A stretch of DNA of 64,000 nt from a virus: the IMG/VR virus record IMGVR_UViG_3300042564_003728. One strand, 5' to 3'. This document shows, piece by piece, positions 37,486-58,860 of this stretch. The notes under the pieces are model-generated. The model was given only the letters and a program-made list of their open reading frames with translations, searched no databases and was not told where the DNA came from. How positions within the stretch are numbered: position 1 is the first letter of the stretch; each line of letters begins with the position of its first letter. The position numbers were made by a program, and so were the translations under genes.

Positions 37486-38187
37486 TCATGGTAGTTTCCT
37501 TTCAAACTCTGCTTGCGCAGCCATATCGTCAAGAGCCTTCTTCACATCAGGGAAATGGTGCGCAATAATATCCCAGCACTGTTCGGCAATGATACGATGT
37601 TCTTTCTGAGTTGCCTTATCCATACGCAACTGACAGTAGTGAACCCATGAACGAAGCGTGCCAGTCACGATCATGACCGATTCTGTATTGCCTTCAGGAA
37701 GAACGGCACGAGCTTGTTCTTTGGCGATACCATTTTCAATTGCCCAGTTATAGGCATACAACGACTCGCTGATTACTCGGGCTTGCCGTATATTCCAATT
37801 TTCTTGTAGTAATTTATTATCGCCAGCTTCGATTGAGTTCTGTCTGTTCTTGGCATCTTGAAGTCTGGCTTCTCGATTAACAAAGCCAAGATCTTTCGTT
37901 GGATCGGCGTAACGCTGAGAGTATTCTTGGAACATGAAAGAACGATGTCTAAGAATTTGTCGAGCGATATCTCTTGTTGTTCTGATTTCCATTGAGACAT
38001 GGACCATCTCCAAGGGTGACCAATGCTGGTTCTTGATAAGATACTGAACAAGCTTAGGCGCTGTAGCAGTGTTGTTTTGATTTGATGGATTCGATACTCG
38101 AGCAGCCCATGCAATCAATTCGTTTGCGGTTACACATTCTGTATATGCACTCGGCTTTGTAATGCCGACTAGATTTACTTCACTCAT
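37486..38187 (-). CDS. thyX: flavin-dependent thymidylate synthase ThyX
   Basis: ThyX motif RHRSFMFQEYSQRY (RHR-x7-S-x-R); 233 aa. Confidence 0.85.
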   Translation of the reverse strand: MSEVNLVGITKPSAYTECVTANELIAWAARVSNPSNQNNTATAPKLVQYLIKNQHWSPLEMVHVSMEIRTTRDIARQILRHRSFMFQEYSQRYADPTKDLGFVNREARLQDAKNRQNSIEAGDNKLLQENWNIRQARVISESLYAYNWAIENGIAKEQARAVLPEGNTESVMIVTGTLRSWVHYCQLRMDKATQKEHRIIAEQCWDIIAHHFPDVKKALDDMAAQAEFERKLP

Positions 38188-40625: not shown

Positions 40626-41108
40626 TTATCCAATTCCGAATATTGTACTCCATGGCACCAATGTAATAATACCGCCTACGATAGCAGCACCGCCGATGAC
40701 TGTCCACATCCATTTTTCCATGGCAGTGATTCGATCGCTCAGAGTGTTATGCTGTACTGTCGACTCAGCACGCATCTCTTTAATTTCTTTCATGAGTTCG
40801 TCGTACTGATCGTCGATGCTTTCTTTGAGCTCGCGCTCGCCTGAAGAAATTCTTTCATGTAATAGCTGGACTTTGTCGTCTGTTTCCACTCTGCGTGCTT
40901 CCACTAAATCTGATAGTTGTTTACTTATGATTTCCTGGGAAGTCAGTTTAGTTTCGTGGACAGCAAGAAGATTCGATACGCTACTTGAAATGTCAGTTAG
41001 CTTATCAATGGTTGTATCCAAACGGCCAACAAGCGTATTGACGACTGCCATATCTCTACTTAGATACGACACATCTTCAGCTAACTTGTTGACCGATGGT
41101 GTTGCCAT
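40626..41108 (-). CDS. coiled-coil protein with C-terminal transmembrane anchor
   Basis: Heptad-rich; C-terminal WMWTVIGGAAIVGGIITLVPW. Confidence 0.35.
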   Translation of the reverse strand: MATPSVNKLAEDVSYLSRDMAVVNTLVGRLDTTIDKLTDISSSVSNLLAVHETKLTSQEIISKQLSDLVEARRVETDDKVQLLHERISSGERELKESIDDQYDELMKEIKEMRAESTVQHNTLSDRITAMEKWMWTVIGGAAIVGGIITLVPWSTIFGIG

Positions 41109-42025: not shown

Positions 42026-42238
42026 TTATTTTCTATTTGATGTTGATGCGAGCTTTCTTGCAACACTTGCAGGAAGCCCATCTTTTGAAAGATTAAGAAG
42101 TCCCAGAGCGGCGATCAAAAGGAGTAGACCGCGCGTATCATCTTTATTGCCACTGCTCGCTCTATTGAGAGAGTTGGCAATGATGGTAATCAAACTATCG
42201 TTCGAGTCTTCTTCTGGTACGTCTTTAAACTTTTTCAT
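42026..42238 (-). CDS. hypothetical small protein
   Basis: 70-aa ORF. Confidence 0.2.
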   Translation of the reverse strand: MKKFKDVPEEDSNDSLITIIANSLNRASSGNKDDTRGLLLLIAALGLLNLSKDGLPASVARKLASTSNRK

Positions 42239-42747
42239 TTCTTCTTCTCTTTTGCCATCGCATCAACGGCCATTTTATTCTCACTTATCCATCGTTGGAG
42301 TTCGACGAGTTGGACCGAGTTGGATTGGCAGATGGCGTAGTTTCTGATGATTCCGATGAGGGCATCAGTGTCTTTAACTGCTGAGGGGGACGCATCAGAA
42401 CTTCTGGCGGCGTCGGCATCACCGGCACTGGCACTAATGTCGTGCGTGAACACCCAGCCGTTAGACATAACAGACTGATTAGGAACAGTGTCTTTAGCGG
42501 CATCAATGTAAACATATTCTTTCTCTCTAATTGTGTTTGTGCGATCAACATATTCAGTGACTACCTCAGTAGAAATTGCAGAATTCTTCCTCTCCAATTC
42601 CGCGATTTGCTCACTCTTTTGCGCAGAGAAACGAGCCAATTCAGCTTCAGCATAAGCAGATCCTTTCATATAACCAAAGACGAAGATCCCTGCCATGAGT
42701 GCAGCACCTGCAAGCAACTTATATGGTAGTGGGATCATTCCTAACAT
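42235..42747 (-). CDS. i-spanin (Rz-like)
   Basis: N-terminal TM LLAGAALMAGIFVFGY followed by a coiled-coil periplasmic domain; contains an embedded out-of-frame lipoprotein ORF. Confidence 0.5.
   Translation of the reverse strand: MLGMIPLPYKLLAGAALMAGIFVFGYMKGSAYAEAELARFSAQKSEQIAELERKNSAISTEVVTEYVDRTNTIREKEYVYIDAAKDTVPNQSVMSNGWVFTHDISASAGDADAARSSDASPSAVKDTDALIGIIRNYAICQSNSVQLVELQRWISENKMAVDAMAKEKKK
42285..42515 (-). CDS. o-spanin (Rz1-like) embedded in the +1 frame of the i-spanin
   Basis: MFTLMPLKTLFLISLLCLTAGCS has the lipobox L-T-A-G-C; the mature part is Pro-rich (VPVPVMPTPPEVLMRPPQQ); lies wholly inside 42235-42747. Confidence 0.5.
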   Translation of the reverse strand: MFTLMPLKTLFLISLLCLTAGCSRTTLVPVPVMPTPPEVLMRPPQQLKTLMPSSESSETTPSANPTRSNSSNSNDG

Positions 42748-42748
42748 A

Positions 42749-43309
42749 TTATTTCTTCATAAATCTATTGAAAGTCATGACGTTTTTCTTTTTCTTTCTT
42801 ACTGGCGGTTCACCTTGTAGGCCTGCAACTTGGCCAGAACCAACAGAATTCACTGCAACTTCTTCAGTCGCATTTACTCGTGCTTGTCCTGTGAGCTTTT
42901 TCATAGCAACTTGTTGATTATGCCCACGGCTCATCTTACGACCATAAAGTTTAGGATCCATAGGTGTGCCTACGTTCAAACCAGTCTTCTTACGAATCTC
43001 ATCGCGTACTGCGATACCATGTTCTTTACGAGCTTTCTCGTCTTTCTTCGATTTGACAACATAAGAACCGAGTGTAGCACCTGAAAGTTCGTCGAGTTGT
43101 GCTTCTTCGCTCATCTCGCCTTGCATATAATTCGAAGCAGTAGTGATGTAATCTTCTGCGAGTGTAATCTTCGACTGAACCCATTCAGGAAGATTCGTAT
43201 CTACCTTCAGCATGTCATGCATGCGCTGAGCGTTGGCAATGATAGACTTGAGTTGTGACATGGCCATATCGCCTTCGTAGTCATACTCTTGCTTTTCTTT
43301 ATTGGCCAT
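42749..43309 (-). CDS. Lys-rich hypothetical protein sharing the ELSxATLGSYV module
   Basis: DELSGATLGSYVVKSKKD repeats the module found twice in the 45057-46553 protein. Confidence 0.35.
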   Translation of the reverse strand: MANKEKQEYDYEGDMAMSQLKSIIANAQRMHDMLKVDTNLPEWVQSKITLAEDYITTASNYMQGEMSEEAQLDELSGATLGSYVVKSKKDEKARKEHGIAVRDEIRKKTGLNVGTPMDPKLYGRKMSRGHNQQVAMKKLTGQARVNATEEVAVNSVGSGQVAGLQGEPPVRKKKKNVMTFNRFMKK

Positions 43310-43698
43310 TAAATCTTCCTTAGTTTTTGTACTATAACTTCATCTACAGCAATATCGTTAGTAATAAGTGTTTTATTATCTATGCCTATATTCGGTATCT
43401 TCTCAGGAAGCCTTCCTAATAAAACGATGAATGGCTTCAACATATGATGATAGCCATCTAACTTAAAGAAGAGTAATCTGGTAGCTTCGTTACCGAACAC
43501 ATTGTACAGAACAACGAGATGATTGACGATTAATCTATCTTTTAAATCTCCGGACTCTTCATAGCGATTAAGTAATCTCTTAATATATTTGAATCGAGCT
43601 AAGTCTTCGTAAAATTCAAGATCCTCAAAACATTGTGGATTATCATAACACTTAGCAGCATATATCAAGAAATTGGAATCATCAAGTTTTTCAATCAT
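43309..43698 (-). CDS. hypothetical protein
   Basis: 129 aa. Confidence 0.3.
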   Translation of the reverse strand: MIEKLDDSNFLIYAAKCYDNPQCFEDLEFYEDLARFKYIKRLLNRYEESGDLKDRLIVNHLVVLYNVFGNEATRLLFFKLDGYHHMLKPFIVLLGRLPEKIPNIGIDNKTLITNDIAVDEVIVQKLRKI

Positions 43699-43949
43699 TA
43701 GGCAATTCTTACTTTGACGCTCCCATCAGCTACAAAGTATGGTTGGCCAAGTGCCACTCCATTAGTATTTGCTACTGAATCGTTGGCGAATGGTCCTTGG
43801 AAGATAGACTTCCGAATGGTGGATAATGTAGCAGACTTGGTCGTATTAGCGGAGATATCTTCTACAATAAAGATATCTCCGCTAGCGATCGACGTGTTGG
43901 CCGTGCCAATCGAAGTAAGCTCAGTTATTTTCTTGGCACGATCACTCAT
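43698..43949 (-). CDS. hypothetical protein
   Basis: 83 aa, Ser/Thr/Ala-rich. Confidence 0.25.
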   Translation of the reverse strand: MSDRAKKITELTSIGTANTSIASGDIFIVEDISANTTKSATLSTIRKSIFQGPFANDSVANTNGVALGQPYFVADGSVKVRIA

Positions 43950-43958
43950 ATATTATCC

Positions 43959-44804
43959 TTATGCGTCTGGCAAGATTGCGTCGTCAGATGCGTCGGTAGA
44001 TAAGTTTCCACCCATTGCAACGAGCGTTTCGTACTGAACACGACCTGCACGACCACCACTACCAACTGTACGGAGTACCCAACCAGTGTGAGCAGCGCCC
44101 TTGGTGTAACCACGTTCTGTCAGCACAGCAACTGCAGTAGCTGTTTCGCCTCTCAGAGAGTGGCCTGTTTCTGTCAATCCCTTTGTTAGGTCGATAGTGT
44201 CACCATTTGGAGCAGTCGCAAGAGTCACAGCTGTTGTATTCGACGTCTTAATAAAATAATCAGTACCTGATACTAGATTTGTCAAAGCGGTATTACCTGT
44301 TGCAACAGTGTATGTTACTTTGTCACCTGCCAGGAAGAAGCTGTTTGCAGTTGTGATTGCAATAGCGTCTGTCGCATTCGTAACAGCAGCGTTAGCATTA
44401 AAGCTTTGCGCTGCTGGAGCAGCAATAGTCACTGCAGGCACCGAACCGAATCCAGCGATCGTTACGTTAGCAGTCAGTGCAGTTACACGACCAACAGCAA
44501 CTGTTGAGTTGGCTGCAGATGTGTTTGATCCACCCGTCGAGTTAGCAACTGTAACTACAGCATTCGCAGCATATCCAGATCCAGCATTTACTACGATATA
44601 TTGCGCAATCGCAGCATTACCAGAAACACGAATTTCTGTGGCATCAAGACCGAATTGGCCTACCGCTTCGCCAGCAACAAATGCGCCGACCGTGGTGTTA
44701 CCAAACAATGCCGCTTGGTTTACTGTGTTAGGTGTTAAGTTCACTGCAGCTGTGGCCCATAGGACCGAGTTTGCAGCATCGTCTGTATTGCCCCATTGAG
44801 CCAT
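43959..44804 (-). CDS. Ala/Thr/Asn/Val-rich repeat protein (possible fibrous/decoration structural protein)
   Basis: 281 aa, about 45% Ala+Thr+Asn+Gly+Val with degenerate repeats (TANVTIAGFGSVPAVTIAAPAA...). Confidence 0.35.
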   Translation of the reverse strand: MAQWGNTDDAANSVLWATAAVNLTPNTVNQAALFGNTTVGAFVAGEAVGQFGLDATEIRVSGNAAIAQYIVVNAGSGYAANAVVTVANSTGGSNTSAANSTVAVGRVTALTANVTIAGFGSVPAVTIAAPAAQSFNANAAVTNATDAIAITTANSFFLAGDKVTYTVATGNTALTNLVSGTDYFIKTSNTTAVTLATAPNGDTIDLTKGLTETGHSLRGETATAVAVLTERGYTKGAAHTGWVLRTVGSGGRAGRVQYETLVAMGGNLSTDASDDAILPDA

Positions 44805-44838
44805 CTTCTTTTCTCCTAAAGATTCTTTGTCTTATTTA

Positions 44839-45048
44839 TCATTCTTCGGATGTAAGCATATCAATCATATATGCCGACATTTTTTTATTAAACTTTTTTG
44901 GTTGACCGTTATGAATAACAGTGCCTTCTTCCATCTGTACAACTTCTGGTAAAGACACAGCTTCTTCACTTTCAACGACAGCTTCAACTTCTGGTAAAGT
45001 TTCAGCAACTTTATTTTTTACTATAAAAGTTCCGACATTAATTGCCAT
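44839..45048 (-). CDS. hypothetical small acidic protein
   Basis: 69 aa. Confidence 0.2.
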   Translation of the reverse strand: MAINVGTFIVKNKVAETLPEVEAVVESEEAVSLPEVVQMEEGTVIHNGQPKKFNKKMSAYMIDMLTSEE

Positions 45049-45056
45049 ATTACACC

Positions 45057-46553
45057 TTATACGTGTTTCATGAGGTTTTCATGCGAGTGACCTACAAACT
45101 TTTGGAAGTCTTCTTTCTCATTTGGTTTCATGCCAGCATACTTCGTTAAGATCTTTGCCGCATGTGTTCCTGAAACTTCTTTCGAATCGCCGTGTGTAAA
45201 GTGAATTTTGGATCCACCCAACATCGATGTCTTCGCCTTCGAAAGTTGGTTCATGATGTGCTGGCCGGCTTCAACCTTTGGCTTCTCAAGAACTTTATTC
45301 TTCTGAAGGAGTTCGATCTTTTTCATATGCTCAGGATTATTGTGCATGAGCTTTTCTTTTGTCTTCGGATGGATCGTGAAATCCTTGGCACCAGCTTTCT
45401 TTGGACGGCCGCGAGCTTCGGTGATTTCTACTTCTTCACCAAAATGTGGATTCTTCATGGGAGAACCCATCTTCTTCATATCCTTGACAGCTTGATCGTT
45501 ATTCTTCTTACGCTTTTTAAGATCTGTTTCAAGGTAACCAGTTTCTTCATTACGCGAAGCAATCTCTTTACGAGCTCTTGCAAGGTTACGCTCTTTTTTT
45601 GCAATGGCACGGCCCATTGCATTTCTAGCTCTACCACGCGGTGATCTATCTTCCAAGCCTTTAGGCATGTCATTATCCATACCTTCGAACATTTCATCGT
45701 TCAGCGAATCAACAAAGTCTTGTTCTTCTTGAGTCAGCTTATTAACTGCTTTTGTTACACCGCTAACTCTTTTAATAGCTTTATGCACATTCTTTTCGCC
45801 GGCTTTTTCTTCTTCAGAATCGCGATTCATATCACCACGAACTGTCATTGCGTCACCCGAGTAGCCTCTGCTAAATGCCTGGTTTGTTGCTTTCTTGACA
45901 TAAGAACCAAGAGTTGCCTTTGATAGTTCATCAATCTGCTCTGACTCTTCCTTGGTCAGTTTCTTAACAGCAGTTTCAATACCCTTGTGGCGCTTTGTGA
46001 GCTTCTTTTCAAGTGGCTTCGAAGAACTACCGTGAGCTTCTTTGTGGCCTTGTCTATAAGAAGCAGTATCGATAGAATCCTTGGCTTTATTGATGTAACG
46101 GCCAAGTGTTCCCTTCGAGACCTCATTGATCGGCGCTGCTGTATCGCACTGACCGCAACATTCAGGAGTTCCGCAATTGGTATGCTCTACATCTTCATTG
46201 GCTTTCATTGCTTTCTTCGCAAGATGCTTAGCAACGTTCTTTACTTTGTTACCGTATTCATCTTTACGCTCTTCGCCAGCTTTTCTATAAGGACCATCAA
46301 AAGGCAATTTAGGTGCATCTTCTTCCTTGATTGGCTTCTTTTCTTTTGCCATCATCGCACGAACTTTGTCTGCCGTCTTCTTGTTAGCTTCAGTCGGTTC
46401 ATCGGCAGTAGGCATCGTGCCTTCTTTCATCTCATCTTCTGCTTCGCACTTTGAGCATTCGCAGTCGGCTGGACATTTCTTCGCTTCTCCAAGAATACCG
46501 AGAACAGTATTAAGAAGGTCGTCTGAAAAATTTGCAATCTTTTTAGTTAACAT
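45057..46553 (-). CDS. Lys/Glu-rich 498-aa protein with Cys clusters and repeated modules
   Basis: N-terminus CPADCECSKCEAEDE and CGTPECCGQCD; modules INEVSKGTLGRYINKAKD and IDELSKATLGSYVKKATN; highly charged throughout. Confidence 0.4.
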   Translation of the reverse strand: MLTKKIANFSDDLLNTVLGILGEAKKCPADCECSKCEAEDEMKEGTMPTADEPTEANKKTADKVRAMMAKEKKPIKEEDAPKLPFDGPYRKAGEERKDEYGNKVKNVAKHLAKKAMKANEDVEHTNCGTPECCGQCDTAAPINEVSKGTLGRYINKAKDSIDTASYRQGHKEAHGSSSKPLEKKLTKRHKGIETAVKKLTKEESEQIDELSKATLGSYVKKATNQAFSRGYSGDAMTVRGDMNRDSEEEKAGEKNVHKAIKRVSGVTKAVNKLTQEEQDFVDSLNDEMFEGMDNDMPKGLEDRSPRGRARNAMGRAIAKKERNLARARKEIASRNEETGYLETDLKKRKKNNDQAVKDMKKMGSPMKNPHFGEEVEITEARGRPKKAGAKDFTIHPKTKEKLMHNNPEHMKKIELLQKNKVLEKPKVEAGQHIMNQLSKAKTSMLGGSKIHFTHGDSKEVSGTHAAKILTKYAGMKPNEKEDFQKFVGHSHENLMKHV

Positions 46554-46564
46554 GGTAACTCCTA

Positions 46565-47002
46565 TTATCTTTTTGTAAGTGCTTTTAACATCCAGGCATG
46601 TTTATCATGTGCATCTAGACGACCTTCTAGAAAATTCACTAAACCGAATTCGCCTGCAGACTCGGCTGTATTTCTTACTTGTTTTAATTTGTTTCTAAGT
46701 GTATCATTATCTATCTTTACTTGTGAAAGCATTTCTACAGCCGGAATAATCATATCATCACACTGAATAGTTGCAAGAACTAGATATCTTTTAAAAGATC
46801 CTGGAGCATACGCATTTAAACTGCGAATTTTTTCAGCAGTCTCGTCGACAGCACTGTCAATCTCTTCGTAAAGTTTTCCAAGAAACTTATGATACTGAGC
46901 AAAGTCAGGACCTTCAATATTCCAGTGGTAATACTGTGTCTTTAACCGAAACGCAAAGGTATCGGCTAGCAGTTCTTTCATCTGCTGAATGAGTTCTTCC
47001 AT
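46565..47002 (-). CDS. Dps-family ferritin-like protein
   Basis: KTQYYHWNIEGPDFAQYHKFLGKLYEEI matches the Dps helix-A/B ferroxidase block (HWNVTGPNF...HEKFEEQYEEL); 145 aa. Confidence 0.6.
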   Translation of the reverse strand: MEELIQQMKELLADTFAFRLKTQYYHWNIEGPDFAQYHKFLGKLYEEIDSAVDETAEKIRSLNAYAPGSFKRYLVLATIQCDDMIIPAVEMLSQVKIDNDTLRNKLKQVRNTAESAGEFGLVNFLEGRLDAHDKHAWMLKALTKR

Positions 47003-47295
47003 TAGTTACACTTCCATCTACGAAGCGACATCGCCTTGCGAGTCGGTCTACCTTTTTCATCTTTCATCGGACCTTTGACGCCACTCATACGAGCACAGAA
47101 AGACTTACGTCTACCTGCATCTTTGGATCCAGGCTTTACTTTACCAGTGACAGCTGTCTGAAGGTTGGATCCAGGATTCTTGGCACGATAAGCTTTTACA
47201 CCTTTCGCTGTCATACCTGCACCCTTCTCAGTGGCGATGAAGTGACCTTTCGAATCTTCGCCACGCTCAGTGATGAATTCCTTAAATCCGATCAT
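47002..47295 (-). CDS. small basic protein with T4 capsid-targeting-sequence-like N-terminus
   Basis: MIGFKEFITE-RGE resembles T4 internal-protein leaders (MKTYQEFIAE, cleaved after the Glu). Confidence 0.3.
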   Translation of the reverse strand: MIGFKEFITERGEDSKGHFIATEKGAGMTAKGVKAYRAKNPGSNLQTAVTGKVKPGSKDAGRRKSFCARMSGVKGPMKDEKGRPTRKAMSLRRWKCN

Positions 47296-49499
47296 TCTGC
47301 GTCCTTCTCGATATCAACTTCGCGACGAACTTTTCTCCAAGCCCATCCCTTAGGTGTGCGAACCTTTATCATACGAAAGTCTGATTTGGTTTCTTTCTCT
47401 TCGTCGAAAGTTGTATTAAACACTTCGTTGATATCTGCTTTTTCCTGTCCAGGAGTTTCTTTCTGATACTTCTTGACGAGTGATTTAGTACCAACTTCAC
47501 GATCTGCTGCAGTATCTTCTTTAAATCCAAATGCAGCATCTACTTTTTTGTGGCCATGCTTGTTACGCAGATAGTGCGATATTGCATGATCTTTTGTTTT
47601 AAATTCAGAAGTATCAACTACTTTGCTTTGTTGCTTAATAAGACCATGCAGAGTCTTAATATCGTGCTTCTTTAGTGAGTCGTATTCTTTCGCAATTGGA
47701 TGCTTTTCAGCGGCTTCATTAATTCCAGCGTGCTTATGTGCCGAGGCTTTGAAGTCCATGCCAAAGTACTTTACCTTGCCATGCTTGTTCGAGGCTTTCC
47801 AACCACGTTGCTGAGTGCTGCCTTTTTCTGTGAAAGGCTTGACGTATGGTTTATTGTTCGACTCGTCAATAATTTTCTTTTTAATTTCTTGATGGCGCTT
47901 GGCTGCACCTTTATTAAAAGCGCCTCTATCAACAAATTCATGTGATTTTCTATCTAGTTTAGTAGACACTGCGACAGATTGCACAGAAGTATCCTTCTTG
48001 TTTACAGATGGATTTGTTTCGACTGCTTCAGATGCCGATCTAAAGCCTGCGTCAGTCGGTGCACCTTTCGATCCAGGCTTACGCATACGTTCGCCAGATC
48101 CAGCTTTAATTCTCTTGCGCTTGGCATGAATGTTAGCCCATAGGCTTTCATTGATATCAGATTCACGAAGATCCTTATCAGCACCGTGATAAGTGCCTTT
48201 GCCCTTTGTGATGTAAGAGTTTACGCGAGCCATGCCCCACTGTTGTGGTGTAGTTCCTGGACGGTGGCCGCTGTTCCAAGCAGCAACACCGCGAGCATAC
48301 ACTTTCTTCAGAGTGGATAAGGAAACACCTGACTTCTTTGCCTTGGCAGCAAGACCGTCAGCAGCTTCGTTGACCATCTGTTCAATCTCTTCTCCGTACA
48401 TCGCTTTATATTTCTTTGTGTGTACAGATTGTGGCATATCTTTCTTACGAGCTGCCTTGTCACCAGGTGCATCTTGATATGCACGCGGATCTCGATCAGA
48501 ATACTTTTCCATCTTCTTCCAGTGAGATTCGCGTGCCTTGGCAGTCGAAGCGCTGAGTCCAGTATGATATGCCTCGAAAACATTATCGAGCTTATCGTTG
48601 ACTTCTTTCTCTTCACGAAGATCTGCATCGAGTGTCCAAGCTCTGCCCTTGGCAATATAGCTGTTCACTCTTGAGAAAGAGAATTGTTCTTGCGTTGTTC
48701 TGCCGTCATCTTCCCACGCAAAAGAACCGCGCTCGAACACCTCTCTGAGGGTCGAGAACGGTATGCCGGTTCTTTCGGATTTTTTCATGAGGGTTGACGT
48801 TGCTACGTCTTCTGGAAGAACTGCGCTTAGGAGTCTCTTCAGCGTGATACCCATCGAGTTATTATTCTCGTTGAGGGCATCGATAGAGTCGTTGATAATG
48901 TCGACGAGTTGCATAGAAGTCTTATTATCAAGACTCTCTACGATTGTATTGAATTCTTCGTTGACTGGGGCAGCAGTCGCATGTTGTATTTTTGATCCCG
49001 ATTGGAATGAAGCGAGACGATTGACTTCTGCTTTACGAAGAGCAGGTAGAAGGCGAGCAGCTAATCTTCTGATCAGCTTGACCTTCTTATCGACTACCTT
49101 ATCTACTTGAATTTTTTCAGATGTGGTGAGCTCAGTATAAGGAGTACCTCTACGAGATGCAAACCGCATCTTGACAATATTTCTTGCTTTGACAATTGCT
49201 CGAGCCTTCAGCTTTTCGTCTGAGGCGAGTTTGTGTTGAGCAACTTCTTTGGCTCTCTGCATCTTCGGTTCTTTGGCTCTCAAGATGCGAGCTCTGCGTT
49301 GGCGCTGAACGAGTGTCAGTGCTTTCTTCTCAGCTAAAGTGTCAGTTAGGACTACGGTATCCTCGTTGTGCTGGCGATTGCCGAGACCTTTGAGCTGAGG
49401 ACGGATCTCGATACCATCAAGTGGTTTGCCAGTTACAGACGTTCCGGTTGGCTTTTTTAACTGTTTTGTGTCGACCGGTTTATTCTTCTTATCTTCCAT
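47292..49499 (-). CDS. Lys-rich 735-aa protein with duplicated xxxGxxAWxxx...ARVNSYIxKG modules
   Basis: FERGSFAWEDDGRTTQEQFSFSRVNSYIAKGRAWTLDADLRE and YARGVAAWNSGHRPGTTPQQWGMARVNSYITKGKGTYHGADKDLRE are internal duplicates; a TATAAATA late promoter lies 60 nt upstream (49561-49568). Confidence 0.4.
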   Translation of the reverse strand: MEDKKNKPVDTKQLKKPTGTSVTGKPLDGIEIRPQLKGLGNRQHNEDTVVLTDTLAEKKALTLVQRQRRARILRAKEPKMQRAKEVAQHKLASDEKLKARAIVKARNIVKMRFASRRGTPYTELTTSEKIQVDKVVDKKVKLIRRLAARLLPALRKAEVNRLASFQSGSKIQHATAAPVNEEFNTIVESLDNKTSMQLVDIINDSIDALNENNNSMGITLKRLLSAVLPEDVATSTLMKKSERTGIPFSTLREVFERGSFAWEDDGRTTQEQFSFSRVNSYIAKGRAWTLDADLREEKEVNDKLDNVFEAYHTGLSASTAKARESHWKKMEKYSDRDPRAYQDAPGDKAARKKDMPQSVHTKKYKAMYGEEIEQMVNEAADGLAAKAKKSGVSLSTLKKVYARGVAAWNSGHRPGTTPQQWGMARVNSYITKGKGTYHGADKDLRESDINESLWANIHAKRKRIKAGSGERMRKPGSKGAPTDAGFRSASEAVETNPSVNKKDTSVQSVAVSTKLDRKSHEFVDRGAFNKGAAKRHQEIKKKIIDESNNKPYVKPFTEKGSTQQRGWKASNKHGKVKYFGMDFKASAHKHAGINEAAEKHPIAKEYDSLKKHDIKTLHGLIKQQSKVVDTSEFKTKDHAISHYLRNKHGHKKVDAAFGFKEDTAADREVGTKSLVKKYQKETPGQEKADINEVFNTTFDEEKETKSDFRMIKVRTPKGWAWRKVRREVDIEKDAE

Positions 49500-49560
49500 C
49501 AGAGTTTCCCTTGGGCTTATCTGTTAAACAAACGGGATTGCCGTAGCCTAACCGCAAATC

Positions 49561-49568
49561 TATTTATA
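49561..49568 (-). promoter_or_regulatory. T4-type late promoter TATAAATA upstream of the Lys-rich protein operon
   Basis: Plus strand tatttata; downstream on the minus strand, RBS AAGGGAAACTCTG then ATG at 49499. Confidence 0.4.
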
Positions 49569-49587
49569 ACAAGGAAACTTTAACGGA

Positions 49588-50199
49588 TCAACTAATCCAG
49601 TTTTTAAATCTGACAATGAATGATTCGTTCACACCCATGCCTTTGCGGACATCGTGATACAACTCGTCTTTATGTGCTTTGCTCATACCAGATGGAGCCA
49701 TCTTATGGAATGATTCTTTATCTCCAGCGGTGACGTGCTTACGCATAGCAGTACCAGAAGCAGATTCAATTCCACCTCCACCTTCTTTGCGTTCGCCACC
49801 GACAGACTTTACTTTGATGCTCTTGAAGTTGTAATGGCCATGTTTATTCTCTGTGCCATTATACTGATGCAAAAGCTTATGAAATTCGTGTACACGATCA
49901 GAACCGACATGCATAGTCACATGTGTGTAACCAGCCTTATGCAGCTTTGACATCTGATGGAGCAGAGTCGGATGTTCCTTCGTCATCGCCTCGACGTGCG
50001 AACCTTTGACAGCACGAGAAAGATGCTTCACCTTCTGCTCAGGTGTTAAAGGATTCTTCTTGGCATCATGAGATCCTGTTGTCAGGATCTTATGATCGGC
50101 TCCTTCTTTCTTGGCCGCATCCATCACATGCTTGACGACCATTTCGTGGCCTGCATGCACAGGATTGAATCGTCCTTGTGTGATATGAATGGATTTCAT
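49588..50199 (-). CDS. HIGH-motif nucleotidyltransferase, NMN adenylyltransferase-like
   Basis: GRFNPVHAGH matches the archaeal-type NMNAT/NadM GRFQPFHKGH; the second motif ASGTAMRKHV matches ISGTxIR; the remainder is His/Lys-rich. Confidence 0.5.
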   Translation of the reverse strand: MKSIHITQGRFNPVHAGHEMVVKHVMDAAKKEGADHKILTTGSHDAKKNPLTPEQKVKHLSRAVKGSHVEAMTKEHPTLLHQMSKLHKAGYTHVTMHVGSDRVHEFHKLLHQYNGTENKHGHYNFKSIKVKSVGGERKEGGGGIESASGTAMRKHVTAGDKESFHKMAPSGMSKAHKDELYHDVRKGMGVNESFIVRFKNWIS

Positions 50200-51365
50200 T
50201 GAGCTTTAACCTTATTGAAATTGGCAGCCGAGAATTCAGCACGATCTACGATCTTAGTAGGACGGTTATGTCTAACTACTACGAATCCTTCAGGCTTCGA
50301 CTTCTTGCCATTGATACTATGATCAAACTCGGCACTACTCGAAAGAGTCTTAGCCAACACATCCTTTGCTTTTTGCAGGTGCTTATGCTGGTTCAGAACG
50401 TTTTCGAAGTGAGCACGATTACGTTGAATGTGACCGATATCTGCTTCCATCGCAGCAGTCTTAGCTGCCTTCGATGCTGCCATCTTCACACCTTCAATCT
50501 TCTTCTGATGTGCCTTCATGTAGTGGTTCATGAAACCTTCTACGTTAGGCTTCGTACCAGTACGAACGGTATGATTGATGTAAGTCTTCAGAGGAAGTTC
50601 GTGACCTTTGATGGACTCATAGGTTTCAGGCTTTGCTTTTTTGTTATGGGCTGCAGCCGCAGTCATAGCCTTTGCAAAGCTTTCGCGATTCTGAGGAGTG
50701 TACTTAATGTTATCGAGATGATGTTCCGTTGAAATCAGATGCACGTCTTTGTGCAATCCAAAGTCATTCAGCTGAGCACCATGCTCGGCTTGCATATCCT
50801 CGAGGTTCTTACCATTATACTTAGTATGAATGGCTACACCAATCTTCGAGTTAAGAGCAGCCTTACCATGTGCCGAATTTTTTGGAGCAGAGTAAGTGAT
50901 GGTGTTAGGTGTAAAGTGTACACGACCATCAGACTCATGCACATCATCAGAAGTATGCATGATATCTCCTTGGAAAACACCTTTCTTTGGTGTCACCTTT
51001 GGCAGATGTTGTAATGCAGCTCGCAGCTTCGACACGAGGCCAGGAGCATGTCCATGGTTACGCTCAATATCTTCTGGAGTATAATTGATCTTTGGATTCT
51101 TATTGAAGGCAGACTTCGATGCTACGAAGAATCGACCAGTTTGAGGATGACGACCGAATACCACAGAAGGAGAACCATCATACTTCATGGTGATTCTTGT
51201 ATCGTTCTTCTTGCCTGTCAGTCTGTCATGCACATCTTTGAGATTGTGATAGGCATGAGAAAAGCCTTCATGCCCAGCATTAATCACGTGATCTTCGGCA
51301 TGCTCAAGATGCTTCAGCTTAGTTTCGTCAAGCTCTTCTGCAAGGAAATTTCTAAAACTTGTCAT
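50196..51365 (-). CDS. ATP-dependent polynucleotide (RNA/DNA) ligase-family protein
   Basis: Motif I ITMKYDGSPSVVF (KxDG) and motif IV-like PEGFVVVRHN; the N-terminus MTSFRNFLAEE is capsid-targeting-sequence-like. Confidence 0.4.
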   Translation of the reverse strand: MTSFRNFLAEELDETKLKHLEHAEDHVINAGHEGFSHAYHNLKDVHDRLTGKKNDTRITMKYDGSPSVVFGRHPQTGRFFVASKSAFNKNPKINYTPEDIERNHGHAPGLVSKLRAALQHLPKVTPKKGVFQGDIMHTSDDVHESDGRVHFTPNTITYSAPKNSAHGKAALNSKIGVAIHTKYNGKNLEDMQAEHGAQLNDFGLHKDVHLISTEHHLDNIKYTPQNRESFAKAMTAAAAHNKKAKPETYESIKGHELPLKTYINHTVRTGTKPNVEGFMNHYMKAHQKKIEGVKMAASKAAKTAAMEADIGHIQRNRAHFENVLNQHKHLQKAKDVLAKTLSSSAEFDHSINGKKSKPEGFVVVRHNRPTKIVDRAEFSAANFNKVKAQ

Positions 51366-51967
51366 CGTACTGTTTTTACCGATCCATCAGGATTTACAAA
51401 GAAGGCTTCGAACGTAATATCAGGAAACTCTTTCTTCAATGAAAGAAATGCCTGAAGATTGCTAGGAGCATCATCAAACAACCGAAGCTTTACGTAGTTC
51501 TTAGTATTTATATACTTTCGAAAGATGATCTTCTTGGCTTCAGCCGAAGAGTCGATCTTCAAGTTACCAGCTCGTTCGACATGGATATTATCGATAGGTA
51601 GACCATGATCTCTGAACGTCTGAAGGAAGATATCCTTGTTATCGAAGTCAGCTCGCGCTGTACAGATAATCACTCGACTATGAGGATTCTTTTTCGAGTT
51701 AGCAAAGATAGCTTTTGTTTTTGCAACCATACGAGTGATTGGCTTGGATGACCTACGAAATACCTCGGCGTTTGCAAACTCTCCGAAGTCGTAGGTTTCA
51801 CCCTTCTTACGTTTGTAAGTGTTGAACTCTTGGTTGTCTAGCATTCTGACAAGGTTGCCGTCTTTTACAACGGCAACCTTTGCATACGTGTGAAACAATG
51901 TCTCATCAATATCGAATATCGTGAGGGTACCAGTACCAACAAACTCTTTAAATCTTTTCTTTATCAT
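51362..51967 (-). CDS. HAD-family phosphatase (polynucleotide 3'-phosphatase-like)
   Basis: IFDIDETLF DxDxT motif, ICTAR and FDD blocks comparable with the T4 Pnk phosphatase domain; a promoter-like motif lies 30 nt upstream. Confidence 0.45.
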   Translation of the reverse strand: MIKKRFKEFVGTGTLTIFDIDETLFHTYAKVAVVKDGNLVRMLDNQEFNTYKRKKGETYDFGEFANAEVFRRSSKPITRMVAKTKAIFANSKKNPHSRVIICTARADFDNKDIFLQTFRDHGLPIDNIHVERAGNLKIDSSAEAKKIIFRKYINTKNYVKLRLFDDAPSNLQAFLSLKKEFPDITFEAFFVNPDGSVKTVR

Positions 51968-52727: not shown

Positions 52728-52809
52728 AATTTATTCCTTATTCCTTTGTTTATTTATCAACAAGCAAAATTATCTTTGCTCGTATTGTCACGCTACAACG
52801 AAATGCAAT

Positions 52810-52826: not shown

Positions 52827-52885
52827 ACAAAAAAAATCGCTCCGAGTATCTCTACTGGAGCGATTTGTTAGAAATATTTATGGTG

Positions 52886-53555: not shown

Positions 53556-53972
53556 TCATATTCCAGCTTTCTTTACAAGATCTTTATATCCACGCCACGA
53601 TGGATGGATATCATCAGGTTGAACATACGATGTAGCAATGATACGATCTCCGTAACTTACAGCGATGCTTTTCACTACGGCATTCACCTTAGGTTTACAA
53701 AAACCTTTGTTACAAGGAGGCATAATCCATACTACATTTCCTACCTTAATACGAGTTCTAATTATTGTCAACTCTTTTTTTGTATTCACGCCGGAATGAT
53801 CGTTTGTTCCAAGACTAATCACGATTGTCTTGGCTTCAAGCGGAGTCTTACCCCACTTCTTATTCCACTGCCATGTGTTATATCCGCCCTTCGAATATGA
53901 TACACATTCTTTCGGAGCAAACATTTTAGTACCAACGGCGATCGAGTCGCCCATAATTAAACATTCTAACAT
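53556..53972 (-). CDS. SGNH/GDSL-family hydrolase
   Basis: Block I IMGDSIAVG, block III SLGTNDH, block V DDIHPS. Confidence 0.55.
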   Translation of the reverse strand: MLECLIMGDSIAVGTKMFAPKECVSYSKGGYNTWQWNKKWGKTPLEAKTIVISLGTNDHSGVNTKKELTIIRTRIKVGNVVWIMPPCNKGFCKPKVNAVVKSIAVSYGDRIIATSYVQPDDIHPSWRGYKDLVKKAGI

Positions 53973-57218: not shown

Positions 57219-57234
57219 AATTGTACATGCTTAC
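57219..57234 (-). promoter_or_regulatory. promoter-like motif variant (GTAAGCATGTACAATT)
   Basis: GCTTA-type variant. Confidence 0.25.
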
Positions 57235-58028
57235 TTTACGTTGACGATACCCTTAAAGTCGTAAGGAACGATAATGGTAGAAACCTTACCTTCCTTCACG
57301 GCTTCGGCGATCGTCACGAGAGCAGTTGCTTCCATGTACTTTGTTGCACCAGCATTGGCGTTCAGAGCGGCAATACGTTCTGCTTCCAACTTTGCGGTGC
57401 GAACCTCTACCTGCTTCTGCTTCTCGGCGTTCTGTGCCTGAACCAACTGGTTGGCTGAGGCTACGATGTTCGCAGCAGGCTTTACCTGACGAACAAGAAC
57501 CTGAGAGATTGAAATTGCACCGTCAAGCTTCTCAGAAGCAAGCTGCGTAACGATTTCCTGGCGAACAAGCTGTTCGATCTCTGCACGGTTATCAGCCATT
57601 TTCAAGGACTCGTACTTGCGTGCAACCTTATAGGCAGCATTACGACCGAGCTGACGAATGTAGTTGTACATTAGAAGGGTGTCACCTTCTTCGGTATCAG
57701 CGTGGAAGCCACGGTTCTTTTCGATGTAGAGTTCTGCAACAGAACCAGGATTGATCGAGTAGATGACAGCCATATCGAAGTCGGCAACTGTCGAGTTATC
57801 AGAAGCGAGTGGAGTCAAGTCAGAGACATCAACCTGAACATCCTTTGTAGGGAATGTCATGACATCACCGAACATTGTCTGATTGATAGAACCAGGCATC
57901 AACTCAGTTGTTTCAATGGTCTTGTCGAACGAGCGACGAACACCAACTTCACCAGTTTCAATACGAGTACATGCAGCAGTCGTGGCCATCAGACCAGCGA
58001 GAACGGCAATCTTTGCAATACGATTCAT
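57231..58028 (-). CDS. SPFH/band-7 (prohibitin-like) lipoprotein
   Basis: Signal plus lipobox LMATTAAC; SPFH core through residue 200; Ala/Gln-rich coiled-coil tail. Confidence 0.65.
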   Translation of the reverse strand: MNRIAKIAVLAGLMATTAACTRIETGEVGVRRSFDKTIETTELMPGSINQTMFGDVMTFPTKDVQVDVSDLTPLASDNSTVADFDMAVIYSINPGSVAELYIEKNRGFHADTEEGDTLLMYNYIRQLGRNAAYKVARKYESLKMADNRAEIEQLVRQEIVTQLASEKLDGAISISQVLVRQVKPAANIVASANQLVQAQNAEKQKQVEVRTAKLEAERIAALNANAGATKYMEATALVTIAEAVKEGKVSTIIVPYDFKGIVNVK

Positions 58029-58042
58029 AATTTACTTTTCCT

Positions 58043-58219
58043 TTAGAACAAAATAACAATAGACGCAACAAATAACATTACTAGAACGGTGACTCCAAAA
58101 GAATAACCGGCCACGGCCAACATTTTTATCTTTTCTTTTCCGGTCAGCCGACGGAAAATATCAATGCTTGTAAAAAAGATGACAAACAATGACAAGAAAG
58201 CAATAATCATTTTACTCAT
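58043..58219 (-). CDS. small 2-TM membrane protein (58 aa), missed by the ORF track
   Basis: MSKMIIAFLSLFVIFFTSIDIFRRLTGKEKIKMLAVAGYSFGVTVLVMLFVASIVILF; ATG overlaps the phosphoesterase stop (TAATG) and the gene ends 15 nt before the SPFH ATG. Confidence 0.4.
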   Translation of the reverse strand: MSKMIIAFLSLFVIFFTSIDIFRRLTGKEKIKMLAVAGYSFGVTVLVMLFVASIVILF

Positions 58220-58860
58220 TAATTAGGTCCACTTCCATTTCCCCATGCTTTTACAGGACCTTTATATCCTGTATCTTTCCAACGTTGTTGGATTCTTTCT
58301 TCTACCTCATCGAAGTGAAGAGGAGTGAAGTCGGTTTGCTCTACGCATACGCAGAGATATCGAGGATCTGGGAAGTCAGCATATATGATTTCGTTTCTAT
58401 CAGCATTAACTCCCCATGGCATTTTGATCTCATTTGCATGTAGATGACCGTGTACGTTGACACGGAACCTTTCAGACACGCAGTCAGGATGTAGCGGGAT
58501 ATGGCTCAGAATGAACTTATCGACAAACACACGAACACCGTGAATCTGCTCAAAGCCAACTTCACGATAGTCTTCGTCCTTGAAGATGTCGTGGTTACCG
58601 CGCACAAGGATCTTACGGCCATTCATACGCTTTACCAATTCAAGATACTTCTTGTTGATTACCACGTCGCCAAGAAAGTAGACAGTGTCTTGCTCTTTCA
58701 CTTTAGCATTGTGCCGCTCGATCATGGTCTCGTTCATCTCTTCAGTCGAAGTGAACGGCCGCAGCGGACTGCCGTCAGATAGCGTGAACTTTTCCCACGA
58801 GTTCGTATGACCAAGATGATGGTCAGAGATAACGAATCTGTTTACAAACTTAGTCATCAT
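58219..58860 (-). CDS. calcineurin-like metallophosphoesterase
   Basis: Motifs ISDHHLGH, GDVV, GNHD, GHLH; 213 aa. Confidence 0.65.
   Translation of the reverse strand: MMTKFVNRFVISDHHLGHTNSWEKFTLSDGSPLRPFTSTEEMNETMIERHNAKVKEQDTVYFLGDVVINKKYLELVKRMNGRKILVRGNHDIFKDEDYREVGFEQIHGVRVFVDKFILSHIPLHPDCVSERFRVNVHGHLHANEIKMPWGVNADRNEIIYADFPDPRYLCVCVEQTDFTPLHFDEVEERIQQRWKDTGYKGPVKAWGNGSGPN

Follow-up and report, generated by a model that had tools for sequence, protein, structure and literature searches.

The 64,000-nucleotide stretch from the IMG/VR record IMGVR_UViG_3300042564_003728, hereafter called the window, belongs to an uncultured, aquatic T4-like myovirus and carries T4 core genes throughout. 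Between gp41/UvsX and the gp61 primase gene, inside the replication module, it holds a 9-kb block (positions 42,749 to 51,967) encoding a HAD-type protein, a DUF6267 protein, a cytidylyltransferase-like protein, a Lys-rich protein of 735 amino acids (aa), a basic 97-aa DUF6321 protein, a Dps/ferritin-like protein and several further proteins, among them Lys-rich ones. A first-pass annotation had proposed that this block supplies a set of proteins, enzymes included, that is loaded into the phage head and injected with the DNA. All open reading frames (ORFs) it had listed are present on the minus strand and are collected in Table 1. Two of the block proteins begin with a complete T4-type capsid-targeting tag, while late expression and virion association are documented for homologues of the block. 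We assign a probability of roughly 60 % to the reading of the block as a late-transcribed island whose accessory proteins associate with the virion and in which the tag marks the actual cargo, namely the tagged proteins. Packaging of the block as a whole appears far less probable.

Results

The T4 internal proteins (IP) II and III start with MKTYQEFIAE; in this leader, targeting depends on residues 4 and 7 and cleavage by the gp21 protease on residues 8 and 10 (PMC9026906). IPI starts with MKTFKEF. Three N-termini of the block had been likened to this leader, and all three read as quoted, although only two of them are complete tags. The DUF6267 protein (MTSFRNFLAE) and the 97-aa DUF6321 protein (MIGFKEFITE) agree with the T4 leader at positions 4, 7, 8 and 10. 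When the strict pattern ^M..[FY]..[FY][ILMV].[ED] was applied to the 86 non-overlapping ORFs of the 64 kb, these two proteins were the only matches compared to 0.02 expected, and at least two matches were reached in just 7 out of 20000 N-terminal shuffles. The same regular expression retrieved only ipII and ipIII from 70 kb of T4 as a positive control. In the AlphaFold2 model of the DUF6267 protein, residues 1–18 are disordered and lie outside the fold. The third N-terminus, MIKKRFKEFV of the HAD protein (MIKKRFKEFVGT), retains the F..F[V] core but lacks the Glu and thus represents a truncated leader. Compared to divergent homologues, which start with the full tag (MKTFKTFLTE or MKSFKDYLIEE), the HAD protein of the window has a 4-aa deletion that takes out this Glu.

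The tag recurs among relatives of the block. In 80 related IMG/VR contigs it is found on DUF6267 in 69 of 78 relatives and on at least eight block families, comprising DUF6267, DUF6321 and at least six others of 55–330 aa with leaders such as MKSFKSYIKE, MKSFKNYIAE, MKTFKDFVCE, MKTFKQYIFE and MKKFIDFITE. For the remaining ca. 87 of the 97 ORF families in these contigs it is at most sporadic (≤3/8 members). The leader of the 97-aa protein is conserved in 120 close homologues. Among 150 cluster representatives of DUF6321 (50 % identity), 25 carry an IP-type leader, while a further 27 start with MKINEIIxE or MRAxEFIxE, resembling the propeptides of T4 gp24 (MAKINELLRE) and Alt (MELITELFDE). A relaxed leader pattern matches 33 of 144 DUF6321 representatives versus 13 of 330 background ORFs (Fisher p = 1.3e-9). 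It is worth mentioning that 53 of the 150 representatives have an internal, conserved [LIVM]xE-(R/K)G junction ahead of the DUF6321 module, e.g. EEVLNE|RGADSKG. This junction looks like a gp21-type cleavage site, which suggests that the module may be released from larger precursors. No paper tying a capsid-targeting sequence (CTS) to proteins of cyanophages or other aquatic T4-like phages was found in the literature searched.

The head module lies outside the window, and we therefore walked the relative IMGVR_UViG_3300020471_000623, whose tagged DUF6267 protein (start MRFTEFLTE) is 55 % identical to that of the window, over 49 kb upstream of DUF6267 to the contig start. This contig carries gp20, three small ORFs (one starting with MKTLREFRER), gp21, gp22 and gp23, its gp21 being 56 % identical to gp21 of S-SCSM1 and 41 % identical to T4 gp21. 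From the T4 core gene set we infer a gp21 in the genome of the window as well; a two-sequence gp21 profile search of genome contigs found no relative. The replication module of the same relative furthermore encodes proteins of 521 aa (with a signal-peptide-like start), 810 aa, 395 aa (P-loop), 107 aa (Cys-rich) and 517 aa. Read by eye and not by family search, the 521-aa protein is TonB-receptor-like, the 810- and 395-aa pair CobT/CobS-like, the 107-aa protein ferredoxin-like and the 517-aa protein radical-SAM-like.

Virion data are available for homologues in T4-like cyanophages. In S-SCSM1, six consecutive proteins of the syntenic block, including the NMNAT/cytidylyltransferase, were detected by mass spectrometry (MS) in CsCl-purified particles, whereas no protein was flagged as virion in the 50-kb region of auxiliary metabolic genes (AMG, 100–150 kb) and RegA was the sole flagged replication-module protein outside the block (PMC9602691). 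The DUF6321-bearing ORF29 of S-SCSM1 is a virion protein as well. Virions of S-SZBM1 yielded the cytidylyltransferase together with its neighbour 139 (PMC9146016), and those of S-CREM2 yielded ORF154 (cytidylyltransferase), 155, 156 and 160 (PMC10665884). The authors of these proteomes note the recurrence, also citing S-CBWM1, and leave open whether the proteins are cargo or contaminants. The cytidylyltransferase of the window is 43 % identical to S-SZBM1_140 and 31 % identical to the S-SCSM1 NMNAT, both of them MS-detected in virions. The virion-detected enzymes start with MKSFLQFLKE (S-SCSM1), MKNFSSFLTE (S-CREM2) and MRFRQFIIE (S-SZBM1). Across the complete S-SCSM1 genome, the strict pattern finds only the virion-detected NMNAT and a small ORF starting with MKTFKQFMSE between two virion-protein genes. 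In S-SZBM1, the leaderless DUF6267 protein is not among the virion-detected proteins, whereas the adjacent tagged cytidylyltransferase is.

A late promoter had been proposed ahead of the 735-aa gene, and we recover its motif, TATAAATA, in the gap between this gene and the cytidylyltransferase gene. From 39 to 64 kb, the coding strand carries the motif (N)ATAAATA eight times compared to 4.3 expected, five of the eight sites falling into the few intergenic gaps, and the motif precedes the genes of the 238-aa, DUF6267, 735-aa and 281-aa proteins; TATAAATA is also found 20 nt upstream of a baseplate gene of the window. The TATAAATA upstream of DUF6267, which lies inside the HAD gene, is kept at equal distance in relatives down to 65 % protein identity, while relatives at 53–56 % DUF6267 identity have TATAAATA 13–14 nt upstream instead. 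The 735-aa gene possesses a 60-nt 5' untranslated region (5'UTR) that is near-invariant among relatives with DUF6267 only 71 % identical and tolerates a 1-nt indel. Promoter and leader travel with the gene to other contexts, and even there (T/C)ATAAATA always stands ahead of the conserved 5'UTR. This 5'UTR could be a translational operator. Its minimum free energy is no better than that of shuffles (z = −0.14) and no Rfam family matches it, so that we did not retain it as a structured RNA element; an upstream ORF start (MRLGYG...) in the 5'UTR of some relatives arises from the 1-nt indel and is not coding.

RNA-seq of P-HM2 classifies PHM2_161–165 and 168–171 as late, while g41 with the next three genes and g61 are middle (PMC5082946, S2 Table). 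The late set includes DUF6267 (162), cytidylyltransferases (163, 164), a 'head protein' (169) and DUF7207 (170). PHM2_164 has TATAAATA 31 nt ahead of it and PHM2_169 has AATAAATA 40 nt ahead, at the places equivalent to 49561 and 44833 in the window. With its timing read from homologues and promoter motifs, the block is predicted to be a late-transcribed island within the replication module.

Table 1. Genes and sequence features of the 9-kb block and its surroundings in the window.
Feature	Position	Strand	Remarks
Calcineurin-like phosphoesterase	58219–58860	−	replication module
SPFH/Band-7 protein	57231–58028	−	replication module
Beta-ketoacyl synthase, 369 aa	54845–55954	−	PF00109, E 1e-28; PF02801, E 6e-19; no PHROG family
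GDSL-lipase-like protein (weak)	53556–53972	−	replication module
Late-promoter-like site CATAAATA	52875–52882	−	second site upstream of 238-aa gene
Late-promoter-like site GATAAATA	52751–52758	−	30 nt upstream of 238-aa gene
Unknown protein, 238 aa	52011–52727	−	just outside the block; heads the HAD/DUF6267/cytidylyltransferase run
HAD-type protein, 201 aa	51362–51967	−	DxDxT; phrog_415 'polynucleotide kinase', E 2e-9
Candidate late promoter TATAAATA	51505–51512	−	inside HAD gene; 147 nt upstream of DUF6267 ATG
DUF6267 protein, 389 aa	50196–51365	−	PF19782, E 2e-99; RNA-ligase-like nucleotidyltransferase fold
DUF6267 leader MTSFRNFLAE	51336–51365	−	codons 1–10; acidic linker next
Cytidylyltransferase-like protein (HIGH motif), 203 aa	49588–50199	−	PF01467; phrog_3041, phrog_395
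Putative late promoter TATAAATA	49561–49568	−	in 88-nt gap; 62 nt before ATG of 735-aa gene
Conserved 60-nt 5' untranslated leader	49500–49560	−	735-aa gene
Lys-rich mosaic protein, 735 aa	47292–49499	−	two DUF5824 copies (PF19141); phrog_23027, phrog_16028
DUF5824 copy 1	48630–48791	−	ca. residues 237–290 of 735-aa protein
DUF5824 copy 2	48165–48374	−	ca. residues 376–445 of 735-aa protein
40-aa basic module LWANIHAKRKRIKAGSGERMRKPGSKGAP	48012–48149	−	residues 451–496 of 735-aa protein
Basic DUF6321 protein, 97 aa	47002–47295	−	PF19846, E 1e-21; pI 10.6
97-aa DUF6321 leader MIGFKEFITE	47266–47295	−	codons 1–10
Dps/ferritin-like protein, 145 aa	46565–47002	−	PF00210, E 6.5e-21; phrog_3636
Lys/Glu-rich protein, 498 aa	45057–46553	−	two 4-Cys clusters; two TLG(S/R)Y modules; phrog_5709 sole match
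Small ORF, 69 aa	44839–45048	−
Late-promoter-like site GATAAATA	44833–44840	−	35 nt upstream of 281-aa gene
Acidic Ala/Thr-rich protein, 281 aa	43959–44804	−	start MAQWGNTDD
Small ORF, 83 aa	43698–43949	−
DUF7207 protein, 129 aa	43309–43698	−	PF23837, E 6e-39
Basic protein, 186 aa	42749–43309	−	one TLGSY module
C-terminus of 186-aa protein, ...KKKKNVMTFNRFMKK	42749–42790	−	resembles leader
Rz-like spanin/signal-peptide protein	42235–42747	−	phrog_4952, phrog_8821
DUF7201 coiled-coil/holin-like protein	40626–41108	−
ThyX	37486–38187	−	replication module

Three consecutive genes of the block encode enzyme-like proteins. The designation of the 389-aa DUF6267 protein as ligase-like is borne out by its fold, which is that of an adenylyltransferase domain. 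Motif I (KxDG), which holds the catalytic lysine, is present as K61-Y62-D63-G64 and does not vary across 42 homologues; orthologues from cyanophages and a pelagiphage have KWDGAP in its place. The HAD protein features motif I DxDxT, the Ser/Thr of motif II and the acidic pair of motif IV, with FDIDETL (D19, D21, T23), T103, D165 and D166 invariant in 13 homologues. No Pfam family scored above threshold for this protein and a PDB profile search was empty. A comparison with T4 Pnkp by hhalign left a weak link and was not retained, as the DxDxT motif alone aligned at a probability of 62 %; the label 'Pnkp-like' therefore rests on phrog_415 and the motifs. The cytidylyltransferase matches PF01467 with 23.9 bits (cutoff 21) and contains an HxGH motif in GRFNPVHAGH.

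Within the PHROG families, phrog_455 (764 aa) joins DUF6267 to the cytidylyltransferase and phrog_3041 joins the cytidylyltransferase to DUF5824, and on account of these fusions we argue for a functional link. As a polynucleotide-kinase-family HAD phosphatase, an RNA-ligase-like protein and a HIGH-motif nucleotidyltransferase, the enzyme trio may provide a nucleic-acid end-repair or nucleotide-cofactor activity that would be delivered at the start of infection. In HTVC008M, gp129, located between the DUF6267 and cytidylyltransferase genes, is a P-loop (GGPGSGKT) kinase-like protein, which together with HAD and ligase-like genes would complete a kinase/phosphatase/ligase set. A literature search for DUF5824, DUF6321, DUF6267 and DUF7207 returned no papers.

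The block had been described as highly charged. This applies to the 735-, 498-, 97- and 186-aa proteins, which contain 30–36 % charged residues and 12–15.5 % Lys at isoelectric points (pI) of 9.2–10.6, but not to the block throughout, which also includes the non-basic Dps (pI 5.8), 281-aa (pI 4.6) and DUF7207 proteins. Both motifs reported to be shared within the block are present and exceed chance. The first has three copies in the six-frame translation of the window, all of them within the proteins of 186 and 498 aa; in the third copy, INEVSKGTLGRYI, N stands where the original pattern gave [ID]. In the form xE[LV]S[KG][AG]TLG[SR]Y[VI] it occurs 28 times in relatives and not once in reversed-string controls. 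The two copies of the second motif in the 735-aa protein correspond to two copies of DUF5824 (Pfam E 2.6e-26, 92.7 bits). This hit, like DUF6321 in the 97-aa protein (77.7 bits) and DUF7207 in the 129-aa protein (133 bits), lies above the Pfam cutoff.

The Lys-rich proteins are mosaics of short modules, some of which resemble tiny podovirus ORFs located beside capsid genes, and in the phage collection the 735-aa protein finds short-module matches only. Its LWANIHAKRKRIKAGSGERMRKPGSKGAP module is 70–83 % identical to stand-alone ORFs of ca. 49 aa in T7-like cyanopodoviruses, pelagiphages, a roseophage and a Limnohabitans phage, and in DSL-LC07 an ORF of this type lies, next to a DUF6321 ORF, between the genes for the scaffold and the major capsid protein. 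As it is conserved in phages that are not related to each other, the module may have a conserved target. An Rfam Histone3 stem-loop hit inside the 735-aa gene (47869–47929, minus strand) scored 25 bits against a gathering threshold of 34 (E 0.0016) and is taken as chance. The Cys clusters previously seen in the 498-aa protein are confirmed as two 4-Cys clusters (C27/31/33/36 and C127/132/133/136). We also asked whether the 498- and 735-aa proteins are homologous to particular virion proteins. The weak BLAST similarity to the virion protein S-SCSM1 gp280, noted for the 498-aa protein, is composition-driven, vanishes once composition is corrected for, and is not counted as homology.

The Dps protein matches PF00210 over its full length with 75 bits (cutoff 24.5) and is a stable block member in relatives. 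DUF7207, likewise conserved as part of the block, is 37–45 % identical to S-SCSM1 gp276, SZBM1_135 and PHM2_170. The 281-aa protein is likely the counterpart of the virion protein S-SCSM1 gp277 and of the P-HM2 'head protein' PHM2_169, judging from its equal position in the block and the common N-terminal M-x-[LQ]-[WY]-G-x-x-D motif; BLAST similarity is weak (E 1e-6 without composition correction). The N-terminal part of the 186-aa protein resembles HTVC008M gp132 by eye. Its C-terminus, ending in ...KKKKNVMTFNRFMKK, resembles a leader, and the 69-aa S-SCSM1 virion protein gp279 likewise ends in the leader-like ...KKKRTFKEFLEYIE. T4 Alt is also processed at its C-terminus.

Besides the block, the window encodes the baseplate and tail proteins gp6, gp5, gp48, gp53, gp2 and gp26 and also gp32, gp59, PhoH, ThyX, the gp61 primase, the gp41 helicase and UvsX. 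Its gp41 is ca. 60 % identical to gp41 of Methylophilales phage Melnitz, Prochlorococcus phage P-TIM68 and Stenotrophomonas phage DLP6. In T4-like cyanophages and the pelagimyophage HTVC008M, the gp41–gp61 interval holds a cluster of DUF6267, cytidylyltransferase, Lys-rich protein, 'head protein' and DUF7207, and the block is syntenic with S-PM2, HTVC008M, S-SCSM1, S-SZBM1 and P-HM2. A megablast search of the 9-kb block against 50,697 phage records gave zero matches, so a close cultured relative is lacking. Metagenomic relatives number in the thousands, and one NCBI contig has the block with DUF6267 93 % identical to that of the window. The cytidylyltransferase stop is overlapped in some relatives by a gene homologous (E 1e-30) to structural proteins that were verified by MS.

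The replication module also encodes SPFH/Band-7, calcineurin-like phosphoesterase and weakly GDSL-lipase-like proteins, and a beta-ketoacyl synthase, a phage auxiliary gene of unusual kind, separates gp41 from the block. On its downstream side, the block is directly followed by a gene for an Rz-like protein and one for a DUF7201 protein, both with counterparts in S-SCSM1 and S-SZBM1.

Discussion

By analogy to T4, the tag would bind the gp22 scaffolding core of the prohead late in infection, so that the tagged protein would be enclosed as the shell forms. The gp21 protease would then remove the tag after Glu10 (F-[LI]-x-E|), and the mature protein would remain associated with the packaged DNA, alongside which it could reach the next host, like T4 IPI–III and Alt. 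The HAD protein, which has both aromatic targeting residues and no Glu, may be targeted without cleavage or not be targeted at all. The cytidylyltransferase, the 735-, 498- and 186-aa proteins and Dps may ride along bound to a tagged partner or to DNA, or may just as well function inside the cell at a late stage of infection.

Several points weigh against a packaged island and partly speak for an intracellular one. The strict pattern finds no tag on the 735-, 498- and 186-aa, Dps and cytidylyltransferase ORFs of the window. Packaging of the whole 9-kb block is therefore not established, and of the set proposed in the first-pass annotation there stand the late timing and virion association known from homologues as well as the two complete tags, but not the truncated HAD tag or the rest. 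What we report on this phage itself is read from its genome, and the virion and transcript data belong to homologues. The tag is missing in the distant DUF6267 orthologues S-PM2p141, HTVC008M gp127, S-SZBM1_141 and PHM2_162, podovirus DUF6321 proteins do not carry it, and the late block of P-HM2 shows no clear tag, which makes the tag dispensable for late expression. This distribution also has a supporting side: found on many families while missing from the distant DUF6267 and podovirus DUF6321 proteins, the tag is a mobile add-on N-terminal module rather than part of the domains. Untagged block proteins were also detected by MS in S-SCSM1, so either the tag is not the sole route into particles or the detection is unspecific; the authors of the proteomes caution that particle preparations may carry along late proteins of high abundance. 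Longer DUF6321 proteins contain an internal junction that overlaps with the C-terminal half of the 97-aa leader (ITE-RGEDSKG), and part of this leader may therefore belong to the domain. Finally, a preference for K, F, I and E codons would also be expected from a 5' coding sequence that is AT-rich and unstructured.

Taken to its end, such reasoning would make the block a set of intracellular late enzymes and nucleic-acid binders that are never packaged and might serve in nucleotide or RNA-end metabolism, DNA protection by Dps or DNA condensation by the Lys-rich proteins; the motif would be a short amphipathic helix or an AT-rich feature of the translation start with a different role, and the detections would reflect sticking of abundant late proteins to particles. 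Besides the contamination raised by the proteome authors, the untagged majority of the block proteins and the late yet tagless distant orthologues, the low spectral abundance of the S-SZBM1 cytidylyltransferase (emPAI, a protein abundance index, of 0.26) would fit this explanation. Contamination has to contend, however, with detections repeated in three independently purified T4-like cyanophages, and in a fourth (S-CBWM1) according to the authors, with the near absence of flagged replication and AMG proteins in S-SCSM1, and with the S-SZBM1 pair of a detected tagged enzyme beside an undetected untagged one. Nor would codon bias account for F at both 4 and 7 together with I/L at 8 and E at 10; the motif is specific in register and fits the residues mapped experimentally in T4. 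We consider an unpackaged block a serious but rather unlikely alternative.

Entry into the prohead does not necessarily imply injection. The tagged proteins might act there as assembly factors, either as minor scaffold or core components like T4 gp67/gp68 or as a ligase-like catalyst comparable to Rnl1/gp63, and be degraded or expelled on maturation. Most T4 core proteins cut by gp21 do exit the head (PMC5694885), T4 RNA ligase 1 (Rnl1/gp63) is annotated to double as tail-fibre attachment catalyst, and MS-verified structural genes are interleaved with the block in relatives. Against a transient role stand the cytidylyltransferase homologues in mature particles, the conserved active-site residues of the enzymes and, as read from the sequences, one LxE site at the terminus beside a folded enzyme domain without the many internal sites typical of scaffolds. 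This explanation appears improbable to us, and clearly more so than that of an unpackaged block.

Returning to tagged cargo in a late island of virion-associated proteins, the closest known counterparts are the T4 internal proteins, whose leader is a substrate of the gp21 prohead protease (Mullaney & Black 1996, reviewed in PMC9026906). DUF6267 and the 97-aa protein share with them the 10-residue leader with aromatic residues at 4 and 7, I/L at 8 and Glu at 10. Further likenesses are the late-promoter motif TATAAATA, a phage lineage in which a relative encodes gp21, gp22 and gp23, and a conserved tag on polymorphic cargo. The 97-aa DUF6321 protein is a candidate internal protein, as its small size and basic pI of 10.6 resemble IPI (95 aa) and IPII (100 aa). 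In contrast to T4, the cargo shows no sequence relationship with any T4 IP and includes enzymes (here one with an RNA-ligase fold, in relatives a HAD phosphatase and in cyanophages a HIGH-motif nucleotidyltransferase), the genes lie between gp41 and gp61 instead of at the T4 ip loci, and packaging and cleavage are predictions.

T4 Alt, a 682-aa ADP-ribosyltransferase that is packaged into the head, processed by gp21 and injected, sets a precedent for a large enzyme delivered with the DNA from a T4-type head. Its short N-terminal propeptide ends in Glu, and this type of leader is found on many DUF6321 proteins; Alt differs in belonging to another enzyme family, in being processed C-terminally too and in having no homology to the block proteins. 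The giant phages phiKZ and SPN3US with their ejection-protein sets, as well as P1 with its Dar proteins, likewise load many non-structural proteins into the head via N-terminal propeptides that are cut after Glu by a gp21-type protease, and deliver them to the host. The phiKZ and SPN3US propeptides, however, comprise 80–130 residues and are unrelated in sequence (PMC5694885), and P1 follows another loading hierarchy.

S-SCSM1, S-SZBM1 and S-CREM2 share with the window the homologous cytidylyltransferase (31–43 % identity) in an equivalent block upstream of gp61, with Lys-rich, DUF7207 and 'MxLWGxxD' structural-like neighbours (PMC9602691, PMC9146016, PMC10665884). There the tag sits on the cytidylyltransferase, whereas here it sits on DUF6267 and the 97-aa protein while the cytidylyltransferase is untagged. 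The three papers mention neither a leader nor a loading mechanism (PMC9602691, PMC9146016, PMC10665884).

More speculatively, aquatic T4-like phages (Kyanoviridae and relatives) might run a general 'tag-and-load' system, in which a CTS-type or gp24/Alt-type leader hops between dozens of unrelated cargo families. In this lineage, it would deliver with the DNA a nucleic-acid end-repair or cofactor kit consisting of a Pnkp-like phosphatase, an RNA-ligase-fold enzyme and a HIGH-motif nucleotidyltransferase partner, along with basic DUF6321 proteins, pre-empting host defences, while the prohead protease would free the DUF6321 module from longer proteins at [LIVM]xE|(R/K)G. We regard so broad a system as doubtful at present.

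Four cyanophage studies have found NMNAT/cytidylyltransferase-like enzymes and Lys-rich unknowns in virions, leaving unsettled whether they are cargo or contaminants and by which route they enter. A T4-type tag offers a testable loading mechanism and would explain the recurrent enzymes in purified cyanophage particles. It could also serve as a tool for loading proteins into cyanophage heads, and it provides a starting point for the widespread families DUF6267, DUF6321 and DUF5824, whose functions are unknown. If the reading is true, the tag would allow packaged cargo to be predicted by sequence for uncultured aquatic T4-like phages in their thousands, and the T4 internal-protein paradigm would reach past enterobacterial phages and past restriction inhibitors to metabolic and nucleic-acid enzymes.

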